From IMG/VR virus record IMGVR_UViG_2548877009_000017, positions 1-34,896 of that record: a DNA stretch of 34,896 nucleotides; one strand, given 5' to 3'. Shown piece by piece: positions 20,647 to 29,876 of the stretch. Position numbers and translations under genes: made by a program. The DNA is from a virus. Taxonomy: Duplodnaviria; Heunggongvirae; Uroviricota; Caudoviricetes. The notes beneath the pieces are model-generated. The model saw only the letters and a list, made by a program, of their open reading frames with translations. It was not told the DNA's origin and ran no database searches. Each line of letters begins with the position of its first letter. Position 1 is the stretch's first letter.

Positions 20647-20722
20647 TGGTGCTGTTTAACGGACTTGAACCGCTACCCATTCGCTTACAAGGCGACCGCT
20701 CTACCATTGGAGCTAAAACAGC
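20647..20722 (-). tRNA. tRNA-Thr (anticodon UGU)
   Basis: 76 nt on minus strand folds into cloverleaf by hand: 7-bp acceptor stem, D-arm GCTC/GAGC, anticodon loop CTTGTAA, T-loop TTCAAGT, 3' ACCA encoded. Confidence 0.65.
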
Positions 20723-20727
20723 ATGTT

Positions 20728-20802
20728 TGGCGGGACAGCGTGGACTCGAACCACGATAAGAAGGTTAACAGCCTTCCGTAATCACCTTTATACGACTGAC
20801 CC
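20728..20802 (-). tRNA. tRNA-Asn (anticodon GUU)
   Basis: 75 nt on minus strand: anticodon stem GAAGG/CCTTC with loop CTGTTAA, T-arm CGTGG-TTCGAGT-CCACG, 3' GCCA encoded; acceptor and D stems each have one mismatch. Confidence 0.6.
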
Positions 20803-25955: not shown

Positions 25956-26899
25956 GCAATCCCCCTGTCTGCAAACTTCCCTTCCCGTACACCCGTTAAC
26001 GAGTCTTCTCTCAGCAGGTAATCAAAATCTGCCGTCCAGCCCGTGTCGTTGTCTCCGAAGTAAAACGGCTTGGCCTGATGCACAAACGCCCTGACATACG
26101 CTCTGAAACCGTCCACGTTTGGCGTTTTCAGTTGCGGGATGATTTTCTTCAGGCGGCGTTTGCGTTTCTCGTTGACCGCAACAGCGTGTGGAAGTCTGTC
26201 ACCGACTTCGGTGTTGTAGGCGTTCAGGAAGGATTCGTAGTCGATTCGTTCTGCCTTGCGACGTTCAGGTTTAACCTGCCCATCGCCTCCCCCATTGGGG
26301 GGTAGGGGGGTATTATTTATATTCTTGTTAATACCTTCTTGTTCATGATGTGCGGTTGTTTGTGCGGCTTCATGTGCGCTTTCATGTGCGGCATGTACGC
26401 TGAAAGCCGCGCTATTGCTGGCTTCATCATGTGCGGCATCATGTGCGGTTGTTTGTGCGGCTTCATGTGCGGGTAAATTGTCCATTTTTTGAGCATATTC
26501 ATGGTAATTTGTGATGGTTATCACACGGCCTTTTTGCTTCTCTCCATCAATGGAGATCATCCCCTCTTTCACAAAAACCTGAAGCATCCGCTCAACCTGA
26601 TCACGGCTTGCTGGCTTGCCATGTCTGTCGCATAACTGAAGACCTAAATCAGCTGCTGTCACAACCAGTTGACCGGGTTGCAGATGCCATTCATGACCTT
26701 TGAAATTCGCTTTGTATGGCTTTCTGGCGGCATTCAGGAGAAGGTTTTCCCACAGGGTGCGAAGATAAACATCTTTCGCCCATGACTGTTTCAGAATGCT
26801 CCGGTACAACGGAATGTAACCAGTTTTCTGGTTCTCCATCCTGTTGCTCCTGCGCTCGTGTGCGGCGCTGAAATCGTAGATTTTTGCTGTATTGCTCAT
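25952..26899 (-). CDS. Replication initiator, lambda O / P22 gp18-like, carrying the origin internally
   Basis: N-terminus [10 protein letters not shown] resembles lambda O MTNTAKILNF; central His/Ala-rich repeat segment encoded by iterons; 315 aa. Confidence 0.8.
26343..26475. repeat. Origin iterons: two clusters of four to five 12-bp direct repeats (core TGTGCGG) inside the initiator gene, adjacent to an AT-rich tract
   Basis: TGTGCGG/TGTGCGC at 26349, 26361, 26373, 26385 and 26430, 26442, 26454, 26466 (12-bp phase); identical 31-mer atgtgcggttgtttgtgcggcttcatgtgcg at 26348-26378 and 26441-26471; AT-rich tattatttatattcttgttaata at about 26310-26335. Confidence 0.7.
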
Positions 26900-27181: not shown

Positions 27182-27259
27182 CCTCGTTGGATGTTGTTAA
27201 AATTCCATTTGTATTTGATCAGAACGCTCGGTTGCCGCCGGGCGTTTTTTATTGGTGAG
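27182..27259 (+). ncRNA. oop: oop antisense RNA overlapping the 3' end of cII
   Basis: 3' portion ...tttgatcagaacgctcggttgccgccgggcgttttttatt matches remembered lambda oop RNA including its terminator hairpin and U-run; antisense to cII stop region; 5' end approximate. Confidence 0.6.
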
Positions 27260-27490
27260 AATCGAAGCAACTTGTCGTGCCAATCGAGCCATGTCGTCGT
27301 CGACAACACCCCATTCAAGAACAGCAAGCAGCATTGAGAACTTTGGAATCCAGTCCCTCTTCCACCTGCTGATCTGCGACTTATCAACGCCCACAGCTTC
27401 CGCTGTCTTCTCAGTTCCAAGCATTGCGATTTTGTTAAGCAACGCACTCTCGATTCTTAGAGCCTCGTTGCGTTTGTTTGCACGAACCAT
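27197..27490 (-). CDS. cII: Transcriptional activator CII
   Basis: 97 aa MVRANKRNEALRIESALLNKIAMLGTEKTAEAVGVDKSQISRWKRDW..., essentially identical to lambda CII. Confidence 0.95.
   Translation of the reverse strand: MVRANKRNEALRIESALLNKIAMLGTEKTAEAVGVDKSQISRWKRDWIPKFSMLLAVLEWGVVDDDMARLARQVASILTNKKRPAATERSDQIQMEF
27464..27481 (+). promoter_or_regulatory. pRE-type CII-activated promoter element (TTGC-N6-TTGC)
   Basis: TTGCGTTTGTTTGC at 27468-27481 on plus strand overlapping the cII 5' coding end, oriented toward cI, as in lambda pRE. Confidence 0.6.
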
Positions 27491-27548
27491 ATGTAAGTAT
27501 TTCCTTAACTAATAAGAAGTTATGCGCATCAACTTATGCGCGTTGTAT

Positions 27549-27592
27549 TCCCGCATTTCGGCGGGAATGATGACCATGACTGTTAAAGAGCG
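27549..27592 (-). promoter_or_regulatory. Candidate nutR (boxA plus boxB hairpin) between cro and cII
   Basis: On minus strand CGCTCTTTAA (boxA-like, 27584-27592) followed by hairpin CCCGC-cgaaat-GCGGG (27550-27565). Confidence 0.5.
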
Positions 27593-27598
27593 GTGTTA

Positions 27599-27793
27599 CT
27601 ATTTGTTTTTCTTGTTGCTTGGGAAAGGACGAACTTCCTCTCCAATCACACTGCCATCAGGCTTTACCGTAACCATAATGTTACGACCTGCCAGAATGGC
27701 CTTGCTGATAGCGCACTGGATTACACCAAAGTCACTGGCTGCTTTAGCCTGTCCATGGATTTTGGCGTAATCGGCAAGTGTCATTCGAATCAT
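27599..27793 (-). CDS. cro: Cro repressor (lambda Cro fold family)
   Basis: [62 protein letters not shown] parallels lambda Cro; ATG 27793 preceded by GGAGAG. Confidence 0.8.
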
Positions 27794-27822
27794 ATGCACT
27801 CTCCGTTATTAACCATGAACAA

Positions 27823-27851
27823 AGAATACTACAGGTATTCAAAGCAATCAA
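27823..27851 (-). promoter_or_regulatory. Candidate pR promoter
   Basis: Minus strand TTGATT (-35) - 17 nt - TATTCT (-10), overlapping the two OR palindromes, about 30 nt upstream of cro. Confidence 0.45.
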
Positions 27852-27865
27852 TACTCAGGGTATTT
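27824..27865. promoter_or_regulatory. Two candidate OR operator palindromes (AATAC-N5-GTATT type)
   Basis: GAATACtacagGTATTC (27824-27840) and CAATACtcaggGTATTT (27849-27865) in the cro-cI divergent intergenic region. Confidence 0.5.
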
Positions 27866-27899
27866 TTAGTTTAAGTACCTTAGCTATTAGAATTAAGCT

Positions 27900-28616
27900 A
27901 TGGAAAATAAAAAATCACTGACGACAGAACAGCTGGAAGACGCTAAGCGGCTTAAGGCTTTGTATGAGTCAAAAAAGAAAGAATTGGGAATAACCCAATA
28001 CTCAATCGCTGATGAACTGGGTATCACCCAAGGAGCGGTAGGGCATTATCTTAATGGCAGAAACGCGCTAAACGTTGAGGTTGCATCTGGTTTTGCACGA
28101 TTGTTGCAAGTCTCAATTGCTGATTTTAGCCAGTCAATTGCTGCCAAGGTTGCAGAACAGGCAGAAAGCCTTAAGAGCGATGCCAACGTAAGGTATGCAG
28201 GGGAATACAGAGCAGGAAAGAGGTATCCGGTGTTAAGCAGTATCCAGGCTGGCTCGTGGTGTGAAGCATGCGAACCATACACCATTAAAGACATAGATGT
28301 TTGGCTTGAGTCTGACGCGCATATTCAAGGTAATGCGTTCTGGCTTAAAGTGGAAGGTGATTCAATGACGGCACCGGTTGGGTTAAGCATTCCAGAGGGA
28401 ACATTCGTTCTTTTCGATACCGGAAGGGAGGCGATCAACGGCAGCTTGGTCATAGCAAAACTTTCTGACTCTAACGAAGCAACATTCAAGAAGCTGATAA
28501 TCGACGGCGGAAATAAATACCTCAAGGGACTTAACCCTGCATGGCCTCTCGTGCCAATCAATGGAAACTGCAAGATTATAGGCGTTGCAATTGAGACAAA
28601 ACTAAGGCTGGTTTGA
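27900..28616 (+). CDS. cI: CI repressor, lambda cI family (HTH N-domain plus LexA/S24-like autocleavage domain)
   Basis: MENKKSLTTEQLEDAKRLKALYESKKKELGITQ parallels lambda CI; C-terminal GDSM and KKL catalytic motifs; recognition-helix region differs from lambda; no SD upstream and TAGAAT -10 about 7 nt before the ATG suggests a leaderless pRM transcript. Confidence 0.9.
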   Translation: MENKKSLTTEQLEDAKRLKALYESKKKELGITQYSIADELGITQGAVGHYLNGRNALNVEVASGFARLLQVSIADFSQSIAAKVAEQAESLKSDANVRYAGEYRAGKRYPVLSSIQAGSWCEACEPYTIKDIDVWLESDAHIQGNAFWLKVEGDSMTAPVGLSIPEGTFVLFDTGREAINGSLVIAKLSDSNEATFKKLIIDGGNKYLKGLNPAWPLVPINGNCKIIGVAIETKLRLV

Positions 28617-28633: not shown

Positions 28634-29002
28634 ATGGTTGGAACCGCTATAGCAAGCTTTTTTGGGATGTTGGCAATCTCGACAATTTACGGCTTAGCGC
28701 ATGCTTTTATTGCGAAATCTCTATCAGAAAAAATAAGCCAGGCTTGGGCGCATAGATCAGCTCGTTTCATGATTCTAGTGATCATAGCAATACAAGGGAT
28801 ATCTGCATTTATCCTCTATGGTTCAAGCTTATACCTGTTGTATAAAGGCGCGACATTTACGCCTTACACCAGTGATTACGGAACTCTATACGATGGTAGT
28901 GAAGACATCTATATGGCTTGGATCGTTTTTGGTTTATCTATGGCCGTGTCTGTTGTAGCAGACATCATTAAGGTAATTCTCGTCTTAACCTTCGCTGACT
29001 AA
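28634..29002 (+). CDS. Small integral membrane protein of unknown function, co-oriented with and immediately downstream of cI
   Basis: 122-aa ORF from ATG 28634 preceded by AAGGGG; three to four predicted TM segments; occupies the position of lambda rexAB. Confidence 0.55.
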   Translation: MVGTAIASFFGMLAISTIYGLAHAFIAKSLSEKISQAWAHRSARFMILVIIAIQGISAFILYGSSLYLLYKGATFTPYTSDYGTLYDGSEDIYMAWIVFGLSMAVSVVADIIKVILVLTFAD

Positions 29003-29087
29003 CCTATAATCCCGGCAGCAATAGCTATCGGGATCCACTTCACATATCCCGCATAAAAAGCACTGAACAAGCAGACACCGAAAAAAT

Positions 29088-29174
29088 AAATATCCTTTGT
29101 ATTCATTTGCTTATCATTATTTCACCAAAAATAAATACCTTGGGTATTTACACAATAAAATACCTACCGTATTC
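29088..29174. promoter_or_regulatory. Candidate OL operators (three AATAC-N5-GTATT palindromes)
   Basis: AAATATcctttGTATTC (29088-29104), AAATACcttggGTATTT (29133-29149), AAATACctaccGTATTC (29158-29174). Confidence 0.5.
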
Positions 29175-29175
29175 T
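29147..29175 (+). promoter_or_regulatory. Candidate pL promoter
   Basis: TTTACA (-35, 29147-29152) - 17 nt - TATTCT (-10, 29170-29175), overlapping the last two OL palindromes. Confidence 0.45.
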
Positions 29176-29576
29176 TTAGCCATCAGCAGGACGCTGGAAG
29201 CCAAACGGAACAGCTTGGCAGGCTCTTTAACATTGATGGGATTGTCCCGCCGAAATGCGGGAACCAAAGAGTAGTTGGCTTTGGGGTGACGTGAAGTGCA
29301 GCTGCACGACGGCAACCGGAAGATAAGCACCCGGCGCGTCACCGCCAAAGTCAATTCCATAGGCGTTATGCAGCCGCCACCATATTCAAGAAAGCTGCAC
29401 AAGAGGTAGGAGGATTTATGTGAATACTTACATTCAATTGAGAGATTAATTAAATAGAACTGATCGAGCAGAGTCCATAAAGGCTCATAAATGCTCTTCC
29501 ATCCCCGTCTAATTGGCGGGGAAGGAAACCACTTTGTAATAAAAAAAATTCCAAAGTTGTTTCATCGGAGGTCAAC

Positions 29577-29876
29577 ATGACAGTGGTCATTACATATCTG
29601 GCTGACGATAACGCCAGAAATCGCCGCAGAGCACGCAGACAGGCTCAACGTGAACAGGCAATGCAAGAGCAGCGACTGGCGCGAAAAATTGCGCTAAAGC
29701 TCTCTGGTTGCGTCAGAGCAGATAAAGCAGCATCACTCGGAAGCCTTCGCTGCAAGAAGGCAGAAGAAGTCGAGCGTAAACAGAACCGTATTTACTACCG
29801 CAAGCCACGCAGTGAAATGGGTGTGACTTGTGTTGGTCGCCAGAAAATGAAATTAGGCAGCAAACCACTTATTTGA
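29577..29876 (+). CDS. N-like antitermination protein
   Basis: 99 aa with N-terminal arginine-rich motif DNARNRRRARRQAQREQ; first gene downstream of OL/pL; GGAGG before ATG. Confidence 0.55.
   Translation: MTVVITYLADDNARNRRRARRQAQREQAMQEQRLARKIALKLSGCVRADKAASLGSLRCKKAEEVERKQNRIYYRKPRSEMGVTCVGRQKMKLGSKPLI

Follow-up and report, generated by a model that had tools for sequence, protein, structure and literature searches.

An HK620-type immunity region

The window, by which we mean the whole stretch of 34,896 nucleotides of viral DNA that was analysed, very probably includes an immunity region of HK620 specificity, belonging to a P22-like, lambdoid E. coli phage and most likely working in the manner of the lambda switch. 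The right-hand half of this region, which controls repressor and anti-repressor in a lambda-like E. coli phage, corresponds base for base to the region annotated in HK620 (2001), which indicates that the region is real and would work as an earlier sequence-only reading had thought. The immunity type, already described in HK620, is known rather than new, and the region is an ordinary one.

The cro-cI intergenic region was 100% identical to those of HK620 (AF335538) and HF4s, and cI was 100% identical to that of many HK620-type loci. The wider region was 98.6-99% identical to HK620 (AF335538 / NC_002730), with the same order of genes and sites (cro, cI, hkaS, OL, nutL, N). The GenBank record of HK620 (Clark et al. 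2001, J Mol Biol 311:657) labels OR1-3, OL1-3, pR and pL; its OR1-3, OL1-2, pR, pL, nutL, nutR and pRE features fall on the same bases of the window, OL1 and OL2 being those of HK620 except at position 29168. The same immunity region is carried by HK140, mEpX2, HK630 and HF4s, and by 146 of 5,426 complete E. coli genomes. Thus, the comparison with known immunity types that the sequence-only reading had recommended returned the HK620 type. A search of the searchable literature found no experiments on binding, transcript starts or immunity of this type.

The window nevertheless differs from HK620 in four respects. Its cII is of the lambda/434 type, with DNA 97.7% identical to the cII region of phage 434, whereas HK620 has a P22 c1-type gene; a 207-bp insertion, also present in HK140, separates nutL from N; OL1 carries a private C at position 29168; and the third OL site that we favour is not the OL3 of the HK620 record. 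The features of the region are listed in Table 1.

Table 1. Genes and sites of the immunity region, in coordinates of the window; PWM, operator position weight matrix.
Feature	Coordinates	Strand	Description
cII, 97 aa	27197..27490	-	lambda/434-type; PF05269, E 5e-48
pRE CII-binding repeat	27468..27481	+	TTGC-N6-TTGC, toward cI; corresponds to the HK620 features pRE and cII protein_bind
nutR	27547..27592	-	between cro and cII; corresponds to nutR of HK620; boxB on minus strand, identical to nutL boxB
cro, 64 aa	27599..27793	-	lambda Cro-fold lytic repressor; corresponds to cro CDS of HK620
pR	27823..27851	-	-35 TTGATT 27851-27846, 17-nt spacer, -10 TATTCT 27828-27823; coincides with pR of AF335538
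OR1	27824..27840	.	GAATACTACAGGTATTC; exact core; PWM rank 3 of 34,880; OR1 in HK620 record
OR2	27849..27865	.	CAATACTCAGGGTATTT; exact core; PWM rank 2; OR2 in HK620 record
OR3	27873..27889	.	AAGTACCTTAGCTATTA; degenerate; overlaps pRM-like promoter; PWM rank 7; OR3 in HK620 record
pRM-like -10	27888..27893	+	TAGAAT; predicted transcript start is the A of the cI ATG (27900)
cI repressor, 238 aa	27900..28616	+	HTH_3 N-terminal domain (PF01381) and S24 autocleavage domain (PF00717)
hkaS-like membrane protein gene	28634..29002	+	ORF; downstream of cI, at lambda rexAB position; corresponds to hkaS ('unknown') of HK620
Candidate OL3	29088..29104	.	AAATATCCTTTGTATTC; one mismatch; PWM rank 10 of 34,880; starts 45 bp left of OL2
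OL2	29133..29149	.	AAATACCTTGGGTATTT; exact core; PWM rank 1; OL2 in HK620 record
pL	29147..29175	+	TTTACA, 17-nt spacer, TATTCT, toward N; promoter scan 9/12; corresponds to pL of HK620
OL1	29158..29174	.	AAATACCTACCGTATTC; exact core; PWM rank 4; OL1 in HK620 record
nutL	29221..29262	+	boxA-like GGCTCTTTAAC; boxB hairpin TCCCGCCGAAATGCGGGA at 29245-29262; corresponds to nutL of HK620
N antiterminator, 99 aa	29577..29876	+	ORF; arginine-rich N-terminus; aligns with N of HK620 and HF4s

Exact operator palindromes lie on pR and pL

The exact palindrome AATAC-N5-GTATT starts at positions 27825, 27850, 29134 and 29159, four occurrences in the window against 0.02 expected, a number reached in none of 100 shuffles. 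The half-site search against shuffled sequence that had been suggested as a check therefore revealed clear enrichment. The exact palindromes are confined to two clusters either side of cI, and all of them lie on pR and pL. When the operator matrix was run over the window (34,880 positions), the top four scores were those of OR1, OR2, OL1 and OL2.

With up to one mismatch allowed, 6 matches were obtained against 0.86 expected, the two additional ones being located at 29089 (AATATCCTTTGTATT) and 27201. The site at 27201, in the 3' end of cII, was rejected as an operator: it differs in phage 434 and is absent from HK620, which has the same immunity but a different cII module, and we therefore take it as a chance match. 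Versions with 2 mismatches numbered 31 against 14.4 expected in the window, an excess that was likewise rejected as a source of additional operators since it stems largely from the low-GC left end, where 10 of these matches fall within positions 1-1700 (GC 0.30-0.38).

Variation among 65 near-identical loci spares the OR1 and OR2 pentamers, and the flanking positions stay Y or R. We propose that the operator is the 17-bp pseudo-palindrome n-AATAC-Y-N3-R-GTATT-n, which would be the common target of cI and Cro dimers.

cI and Cro are lambda-fold proteins with altered recognition helices

The window cI aligned over its full length with the lambda repressor (PDB 3bdn; E 2.9e-52, 42% identity), with 52% identity in the N-terminal domain. 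It conserves Ala-Gly (residues 117-118; QAG), Ser156 in GDSM and Lys198 in FKKL; given that the cleavage site and the Ser/Lys dyad are both kept, the prophage should be SOS-inducible. Cro matched Pfam PF09048 (E 3.6e-26) and lambda Cro (PDB 1cop; E 4.7e-19), shares 60% identity with the latter, and is preceded by the Shine-Dalgarno sequence GGAGAG, 7 nt before the ATG at 27793.

These matches, together with the altered helices, uphold the description of cI and cro as lambda-fold homologs with different recognition regions. The cI recognition helix, QSGVGALFN in lambda, reads QGAVGHYLN in the window (S45G, G46A, A49H), and that of Cro, QSAINKAIH in lambda, reads QCAISKAIL (S28C, N31S, H35L). 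The half-site is AATAC(Y) in the window compared with TATCAC in lambda: both phages have 17-bp operators with a central base pair and share A2, A5 and C6 of the half-site, whereas positions 3-4 are AT in the window and TC in lambda. The lambda immunity type, with operators of TATCACCGC half-sites, was accordingly not found in the window. Hetero-immunity with lambda is to be expected from the differences in half-site and recognition helices, so that the term hetero-immune used in the sequence-only reading appears apt relative to lambda.

The pairing of helix and half-site also agrees with published work on Cro. For a helix with Gln at H1, Ala at H3 and Lys at H6, the 'evolutionary code' of Cro (Hall, Lefevre and Cordes 2005; Hall et al. 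2011; summarised in PMC6649833) calls for A at +2, A at +5 and G at -6. These three residues are those of the window helix QCAISK, and nAATAC, placed in the lambda 17-bp register, is exactly what the code predicts; the combination of this helix with A+2, A+5 and C+6 thus fits the pairings in the published data set.

Diverged relatives provided a further view of the same pairing. In relatives with cI 43-87% identical to that of the window, AATAC and GTATT are fixed at about -74, -50 and -26, and the half-sites of OR1 are invariant, whereas divergence has affected the operator centres, the spacers and the greater part of Cro. Loci with the cI helix (T/S)QG(A/G)(V/I)(G/A)HY had AATAC half-sites in 25 of 25 cases, from Enterobacterales to Microbulbifer; in contrast, none of three loci with an unrelated cI N-terminal domain had the operator sites, and other palindromes were present there. 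Collectively, the relatives support the assignment of the operators and, as described below, the leaderless geometry of cI.

We consider it extremely improbable that the palindromes arose by chance in AT-rich sequence, or that they are the sites of another factor rather than cI/Cro operators. The pattern is indeed AT-rich, and its versions with 2 mismatches abound where the window has low GC, at its left end; nevertheless, no shuffle reached the four exact matches, every one of these falls on pR or pL, and the sites pair with one cI recognition helix in 25 loci, are missing from the three loci with other helices and agree with the published Cro code (PMC6649833), which together come near to a refutation already.

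The right operator has three sites in lambda-like positions

The divergent genes cI (plus strand, from 27900) and cro (minus strand, from 27793) flank a short intergenic region with OR1-3 at 27824-27889. The overlap of the palindromes with a TTGATT-17-TATTCT promoter toward cro was seen in the sequence just as it had been described: the -35 of pR starts within an OR2 half-site, and its -10 lies inside an OR1 half-site. The promoter scan missed pR because it scores 8/12 to consensus, under the cut-off of 9 of 12.

The sequence-only reading had recognised two clear OR sites rather than three, and in this respect it needs to be amended, as a degenerate third site occupies the position of lambda OR3 and is labelled OR3 in HK620. 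Its core, AGTACCTTAGCTATT at 27874-27888, carries 2 mismatches and is not outstanding by score, about 14 such matches being expected per window; position and comparison are the grounds on which we make this assignment. In most relatives, the corresponding place reads AATA(G/A)-N5-GTATT. In the window and in lambda alike, the 17-mer spans -27 to -11 relative to the cI ATG, and its centre is at -19; the centres of OR2 and OR1 lie at -43 and -68 in the window versus -42 and -66 in lambda. Operator and promoter positions are thus within 0-2 bp of those of lambda, and the OR1-OR2 and OL1-OL2 spacings are both 25 bp in the window as opposed to 24 bp in lambda.

Given these observed sequence features, homologies, geometry and conservation, cI dimers in the lysogen and Cro dimers during lytic growth would bind the same 17-bp sites. 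At pR, the -10 is overlapped by OR1 and the -35 by OR2, so that bound cI would shut off cro, cII and replication; OL1 and OL2 stand in the same relation to the -10 and -35 of pL, and N and the leftward genes would therefore be silenced as well. OR2, with its centre at -43 relative to the cI start codon, occupies the place that lambda cI uses for activating pRM and may serve likewise here, while the weak OR3 on the pRM-like promoter could let cI regulate its own gene negatively and offer Cro its first target. We infer the order of occupancy, and any looping between OL and OR, as well.

The cI message is predicted to be leaderless

The hexamer TAGAAT is followed by 6 nt (TAAGCT) and then by the cI ATG at 27900, with an in-frame TAA at 27894-27896 upstream of the ATG. 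None of GGAG, GAGG, AGGA and AAGG was found as a Shine-Dalgarno sequence in the 17 nt upstream. The sequence-only reading had noted both the missing Shine-Dalgarno and the -10 just before the ATG. With TAGAAT this close to the ATG, transcription from the maintenance promoter should start at the AUG itself. Lambda has the same arrangement (TAGATT, 6 nt, ATG), and its pRM message, from which cI is translated, is leaderless (PMC10491246). The -35 is poor in the window (TTTAGT, 3/6), as it is in lambda. Furthermore, all 22 enterobacterial loci compared (21 relatives and the window) have TAnnAT at a distance of 5-7 nt upstream of the cI ATG and lack a Shine-Dalgarno sequence. A leaderless pRM transcript as in lambda, which had been put forward from the window alone, is thus consistent with a geometry that is that of lambda and is kept throughout these loci.

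Alternatively, TAGAAT might not be the maintenance promoter, and cI could be expressed from longer transcripts, started at pRE or elsewhere upstream, by Shine-Dalgarno-independent initiation. The poor -35 region would suit such an arrangement, and pRE must in any case yield a long-leader cI message during establishment. We nonetheless regard this as quite improbable, given that the -10, the 6-nt gap and the ATG are arranged identically in lambda, whose pRM message is leaderless, that the distance from hexamer to ATG stays constant at 5-7 nt in all 22 enterobacterial loci although the bases in between vary, and that OR2 sits at the activating position of -43. We therefore retain the leaderless cI message, with its predicted start at the AUG, as the expected one.

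A candidate third site in the left operator

The second operator cluster lies beyond cI at pL and N, with OL1 and OL2 exact, candidate OL3 beside them, and nutL, nutR and N also present. The -35 of pL lies inside OL2 and its -10 inside OL1. At position 29168 of OL1, the window has C where 64 of 64 relatives have A. The half-sites had been reported to recur three times on the OL side (29088-29174); three sites do exist there, but they are unequal, two being exact and one carrying a mismatch.

Left of OL2, at a distance of 45 bp, there is probably a third OL site; in lambda, OL2 and OL3 are 20 bp apart. The palindrome at 29089-29103 fits the operator better than the OL3 of the HK620 record (29111-29127), which we rejected: the latter ranks 16,877 of 34,880 by PWM, is unlike the operator, and is polymorphic and not conserved. 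The pentamers of candidate OL3 are invariant in 64 loci, and operator-like sites at -45 were found in Kluyvera (exact), Tatumella and other lineages, only where a site at -21 or -30 is absent. The HK620 record names the stretch of candidate OL3 tIMM (window 29084-29114), but as an intrinsic terminator this was rejected, since its folding energy of -0.6 kcal/mol gives it no advantage over shuffled sequences.

Some lambdoid phages have been reported to have an OL with only two working sites. It is a sizeable possibility, if not the one we favour, that the same holds here and that the palindrome at 29089-29103 is no operator, being instead a conserved boundary or upstream element of pL, or the tIMM terminator. 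The HK620 record places tIMM here and OL3 elsewhere, and the 45-bp spacing is unlike that of lambda; measured centre to centre, it is a non-integral number of helical turns. Moreover, a block, AAAAATAAAT..CC..TCAT, is kept 45 bp left of OL2 in every relative, even where it does not look like an operator, and because the third site overlaps this generally conserved DNA, its conservation may be due in part to another cause. Conversely, the feeble RNA fold would make a poor terminator, the OL3 of the record lacks conservation and score, the right half-site GTATT, which lies outside the conserved block, occurs only in lineages without a -21 or -30 site, and the -45 site in Kluyvera is exact.

Keeping candidate OL3 as the third site, we put forward a tentative joint reading, to which we give slightly less than an even chance. 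In HK620-type phages, OL3 would lie 45 bp from OL2 and not where the 2001 record has it, -45 being one of three interchangeable placements (-21, -30 and -45) in a very wide specificity class, in which the helix TQGAVGHYLNG and the half-site AATAC are fixed from E. coli to Microbulbifer; the private substitution at the conserved OL1 purine might, in addition, weaken repression of pL.

Neighbouring genes

Where lambda has rexAB, the window has a small membrane protein gene, the hkaS-like gene, which is probably co-transcribed with cI and whose product had no Pfam family above the cut-off. The N protein gave a weak Pfam N_peptide match, below the cut-off. An Rfam scan of the whole window returned two tRNAs only, with no oop, nut or sRNA match. 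A 35-aa hydrophobic ORF on the minus strand (28999-29106), annotated in HF4s, was rejected as a gene, as its frame differs after codon 9 in many near-identical loci, which would be explained by an additional base in the A-run at 29085 (14 of 64 loci); diverged relatives have only the first ~8 codons' worth of DNA in common. The ATG of this ORF falls in the third OL palindrome.

Discussion

The value of these results lies mostly in correct annotation, that is, in recognising, within a mosaic P22-like phage, an immunity module of the HK620 type, a label that predicts which lysogens would be immune to the phage. Three by-products of modest use accompany it. The HK620 reference record can probably be corrected in its OL3 and tIMM features; a clean natural set of about 25 diverged loci, which ties one recognition helix to one half-site, could be used in studies of repressor specificity; and leaderless cI messages gain comparative support as a general feature of the group.

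Gene order and assignment to the HK620 immunity type

A megablast search against phage records identified the region as the immunity region of coliphage HK620, which also occurs in HK140, mEpX2, HK630, HF4s and several Stx phages at 96–99% identity. The cro–cI intergenic region is base-for-base identical to that of HK620 and HF4s, and 146 of 5,426 complete E. coli genomes carry the same 1.6-kb stretch at ≥95% identity. In the HK620 record (AF335538, Clark et al. 2001), features are given for OR1–3, OL1–3, pR, pL, pRE, nutL, nutR and tIMM; at an offset of 25,987, its OR1–3, OL1–2, pR and pL lie exactly on the features that the sequence-only reading had described. Annotated in HK620, with an identical cro–cI intergenic region, and present in other phages and E. 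coli genomes, the region is real and already described: it belongs to the known HK620 immunity type, a common one among E. coli prophages. The hetero-immune lambda-family immunity region proposed from sequence was right in observation and interpretation, with two small amendments: OR3 exists, and the OL3 site carries one mismatch.

Genes and control elements of the immunity region (window positions)
Feature	Position	Strand
cII	27197-27490	minus
cro	27599-27793	minus
cro–cI intergenic space, 106 bp	27794-27899	
cI	27900-28616	plus
hkaS-like small membrane-protein gene, 122 aa	28634-29002	plus
AT-rich control region	about 29080-29180	
nut site	29221-29262	plus
N	29577-29876	plus

The cI product is a full-length match to lambda repressor (PDB 3bdn, E 2.9e-52; 42% identity overall, 52% in the DNA-binding domain), contains HTH_3 and Peptidase_S24 domains, and retains both the Ala-Gly cleavage site and the catalytic Ser–Lys dyad. 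Cro is likewise lambda-type (Pfam PF09048, E 3.6e-26; PDB 1cop, E 4.7e-19; 60% identity). Directly after cI, at the position of lambda rexAB, lies the hkaS-like gene, which matches no Pfam family above the cut-off and is probably expressed in the lysogen.

Beyond this region, the window is a P22-like mosaic, its virion genes resembling those of Sf6 and HK620 and its early genes those of HF4s and CUS-3. Positions 1-3000, low in GC (0.30–0.39 versus about 0.48 elsewhere) and the source of many two-mismatch matches to the operator pattern, are probably a foreign accessory module. Two adjacent tRNA genes lie inside the phage on the minus strand (20650-20802; Rfam tRNA, 61 and 55 bits). Within the O-type replication gene, direct repeats of CATGTGCGG-like units (26420-26480) are presumably origin iterons; the HK620 record places rep_origin inside O. 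Relative to HK620 and HF4s, a 207-bp insertion (about 29341-29547), flanked by a repeated ACCGCCAAAGTCAAT-like stretch, separates nutL and N; it is also present in HK140, annotated there with a small hypothetical ORF.

Operators and promoters

The window (34.9 kb) holds exactly four copies of the palindrome AATAC-N5-GTATT (starts 27825, 27850, 29134 and 29159), compared with 0.02 in shuffled sequence; the motif search bears out the half-site read from the sequence. Allowing up to one mismatch gave six sites against 0.86 expected. The additional two start at 29089, adjoining the OL pair, and at 27201, at the end of cII; we treated the latter as chance because it is missing from HK620 itself, which shares the immunity but has another cII module. 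A minus-strand promoter, TTGATT-17 nt-TATTCT, lies over both OR palindromes, the overlap already seen toward cro, and a plus-strand TTTACA-17 nt-TATTCT lies over both OL palindromes.

Only two clear OR sites had been recognized, and two are indeed exact, but a third exists: OR3, AGTACCTTAGCTATT (27874-27888), with two mismatches. Its score alone is unconvincing, as about 14 two-mismatch matches are expected per window. A weight matrix built from relatives ranked it 7 of 34,880 positions, its placement is exactly that of lambda OR3, and most relatives carry a clearer AATA(G/A)-N5-GTATT at this place. Measured on lambda NC_001416 relative to the cI ATG, the OR3 17-mer spans −27 to −11 in both phages, the OR2 centre lies at −43 in the window and −42 in lambda, and the OR1 centre at −68 and −66, respectively. 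The −10 hexamer, TAGAAT here and TAGATT in lambda, is separated from the ATG by 6 nt in each, and in both the hexamer begins with the final two bases of the OR3 17-mer.

Predicted recognition specificity and its conservation

Both repressors are lambda homologs with altered recognition helices, as had been read from the sequence: cI has QGAVGHYLN where lambda has QSGVGALFN, and Cro has QCAISKAIL where lambda has QSAINKAIH. The half-site differs at positions 3-4 (n-A-A-T-A-C versus T-A-T-C-A-C in lambda); going by the lambda complexes, these are presumably the base pairs faced by the changed helix residues. According to the Cro 'evolutionary code', Gln H1 corresponds to A+2, Ala H3 to A+5 and Lys H6 to G-6 (PMC6649833); the window Cro and half-site obey this code in the lambda 17-bp register.

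Searches with cI yielded 80 viral contigs (cI about 100% identical in 62 and 76–87% in 18) and 80 genome loci, the latter from Lelliottia, Siccibacter, Enterobacter, Tatumella, Lonsdalea, Serratia, Pantoea, Providencia, Proteus, Yersinia, Pectobacterium, Scandinavium, Kluyvera and Microbulbifer. Across the diverged loci, AATAC and GTATT hold their places (about −74, −50 and −26 relative to the cI ATG), with variation falling in the five central bases, in the spacers and in much of Cro. All 25 genome loci with the cI helix (T/S)QG(A/G)(V/I)(G/A)HY have these sites, whereas none of three loci matched from residue 1 but with an unrelated N-terminal domain has them, other palindromes standing instead. 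The Cro helix Q-x-A-I-S-K is retained in otherwise quite different Cro proteins. Among 65 near-identical loci, nine intergenic positions vary, all outside the OR1 and OR2 pentamers, and two variable pentamer-flanking positions stay pyrimidine or purine. Three marine Microbulbifer prophages (cI 43–45% identical) share the recognition helix and the AATAC-N5-GTATT sites. We found no binding experiment on HK620-type operators in the searchable literature.

The sequence arrangement expected of a leaderless cI was also upheld. Six bases separate TAGAAT (27888-27893) from the ATG, an in-frame stop lies one codon 5′ of that ATG, and no Shine-Dalgarno-like tetramer is found upstream. Lambda cI is translated from a leaderless transcript of pRM, the maintenance promoter (PMC10491246). 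In 22 of 22 enterobacterial loci (window included), TAnnAT stands 5-7 nt before the cI ATG, and a separate Shine-Dalgarno occurs in none of them. The three Microbulbifer loci lack this hexamer next to the ATG, and their cI may not be leaderless. Taken together, the comparison across relatives strongly supports the predicted operator assignment, OR3 and the leaderless arrangement.

The OL side

Half-sites had been reported three times at the OL side; two sites are exact, and the third, 29089-29103, has one mismatch. The HK620 record instead places OL3 at window 29111-29127 and the tIMM terminator at 29084-29114. The annotated OL3 has no operator likeness (weight-matrix rank 16,877 of 34,880), is polymorphic (29 of 64 loci differ at position 29125) and is unconserved in relatives, and the tIMM stretch folds with only −0.6 kcal/mol. 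For terminating or stabilising the cI–hkaS transcript, a stronger candidate than tIMM is a stable hairpin lacking a T-run (29009-29034; −13.7 kcal/mol, z −4.2) immediately past the hkaS stop codon.

The site at 29089-29103 ranks 10 of 34,880, and its pentamers are invariant in 64 loci. Operator-like sites occur at the same offset, −45 from OL2, in Kluyvera (exact match), Tatumella and others; where a good site lies at −21 (Lonsdalea, Pantoea) or −30 (Siccibacter group), −45 is not operator-like. This complementary distribution speaks in favour of a real OL3 at −45. However, a AAAAATAAAT..CC..TCAT block (29081-29106), 45 bp left of OL2, is kept in all relatives from E. coli to Pectobacterium, regardless of the sequence to its left, so part of the conservation of 29089-29103 has another cause. 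A 35-aa minus-strand ORF does not account for the block, being frameshifted in many loci with an unconserved protein; the block could be a module boundary sequence or a pL upstream element. On balance, we consider it somewhat more probable than not that 29089-29103 is a working operator.

Within OL1 (29158-29174), position 29168 is C in the window and A in 64 of 64 related loci, and all exact operator sites in relatives have a purine there; the C is either an operator substitution private to this phage or an error of sequencing. Among 144 E. coli genomes and 14 phage records, none matched 29128-29200 exactly (best 72/73).

Proposed working of the switch

The anatomy of the sequence, its homology and its conservation are shown by the analysis; the region most likely works as in lambda, with cI and Cro binding, occupancy order, activation, transcript start and looping presumably alike. 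Dimers of cI on OR1 and OR2 would block pR, and those on OL1 and OL2 would block pL; OR2-bound cI, at −43, would aid RNA polymerase at the weak maintenance promoter. OR3 would provide negative autoregulation and the entry point of Cro. Establishment would depend on CII at the TTGC-N6-TTGC repeat (27468-27481), N would act at nutL and nutR, and prophage induction would proceed through RecA-stimulated self-cleavage of cI.
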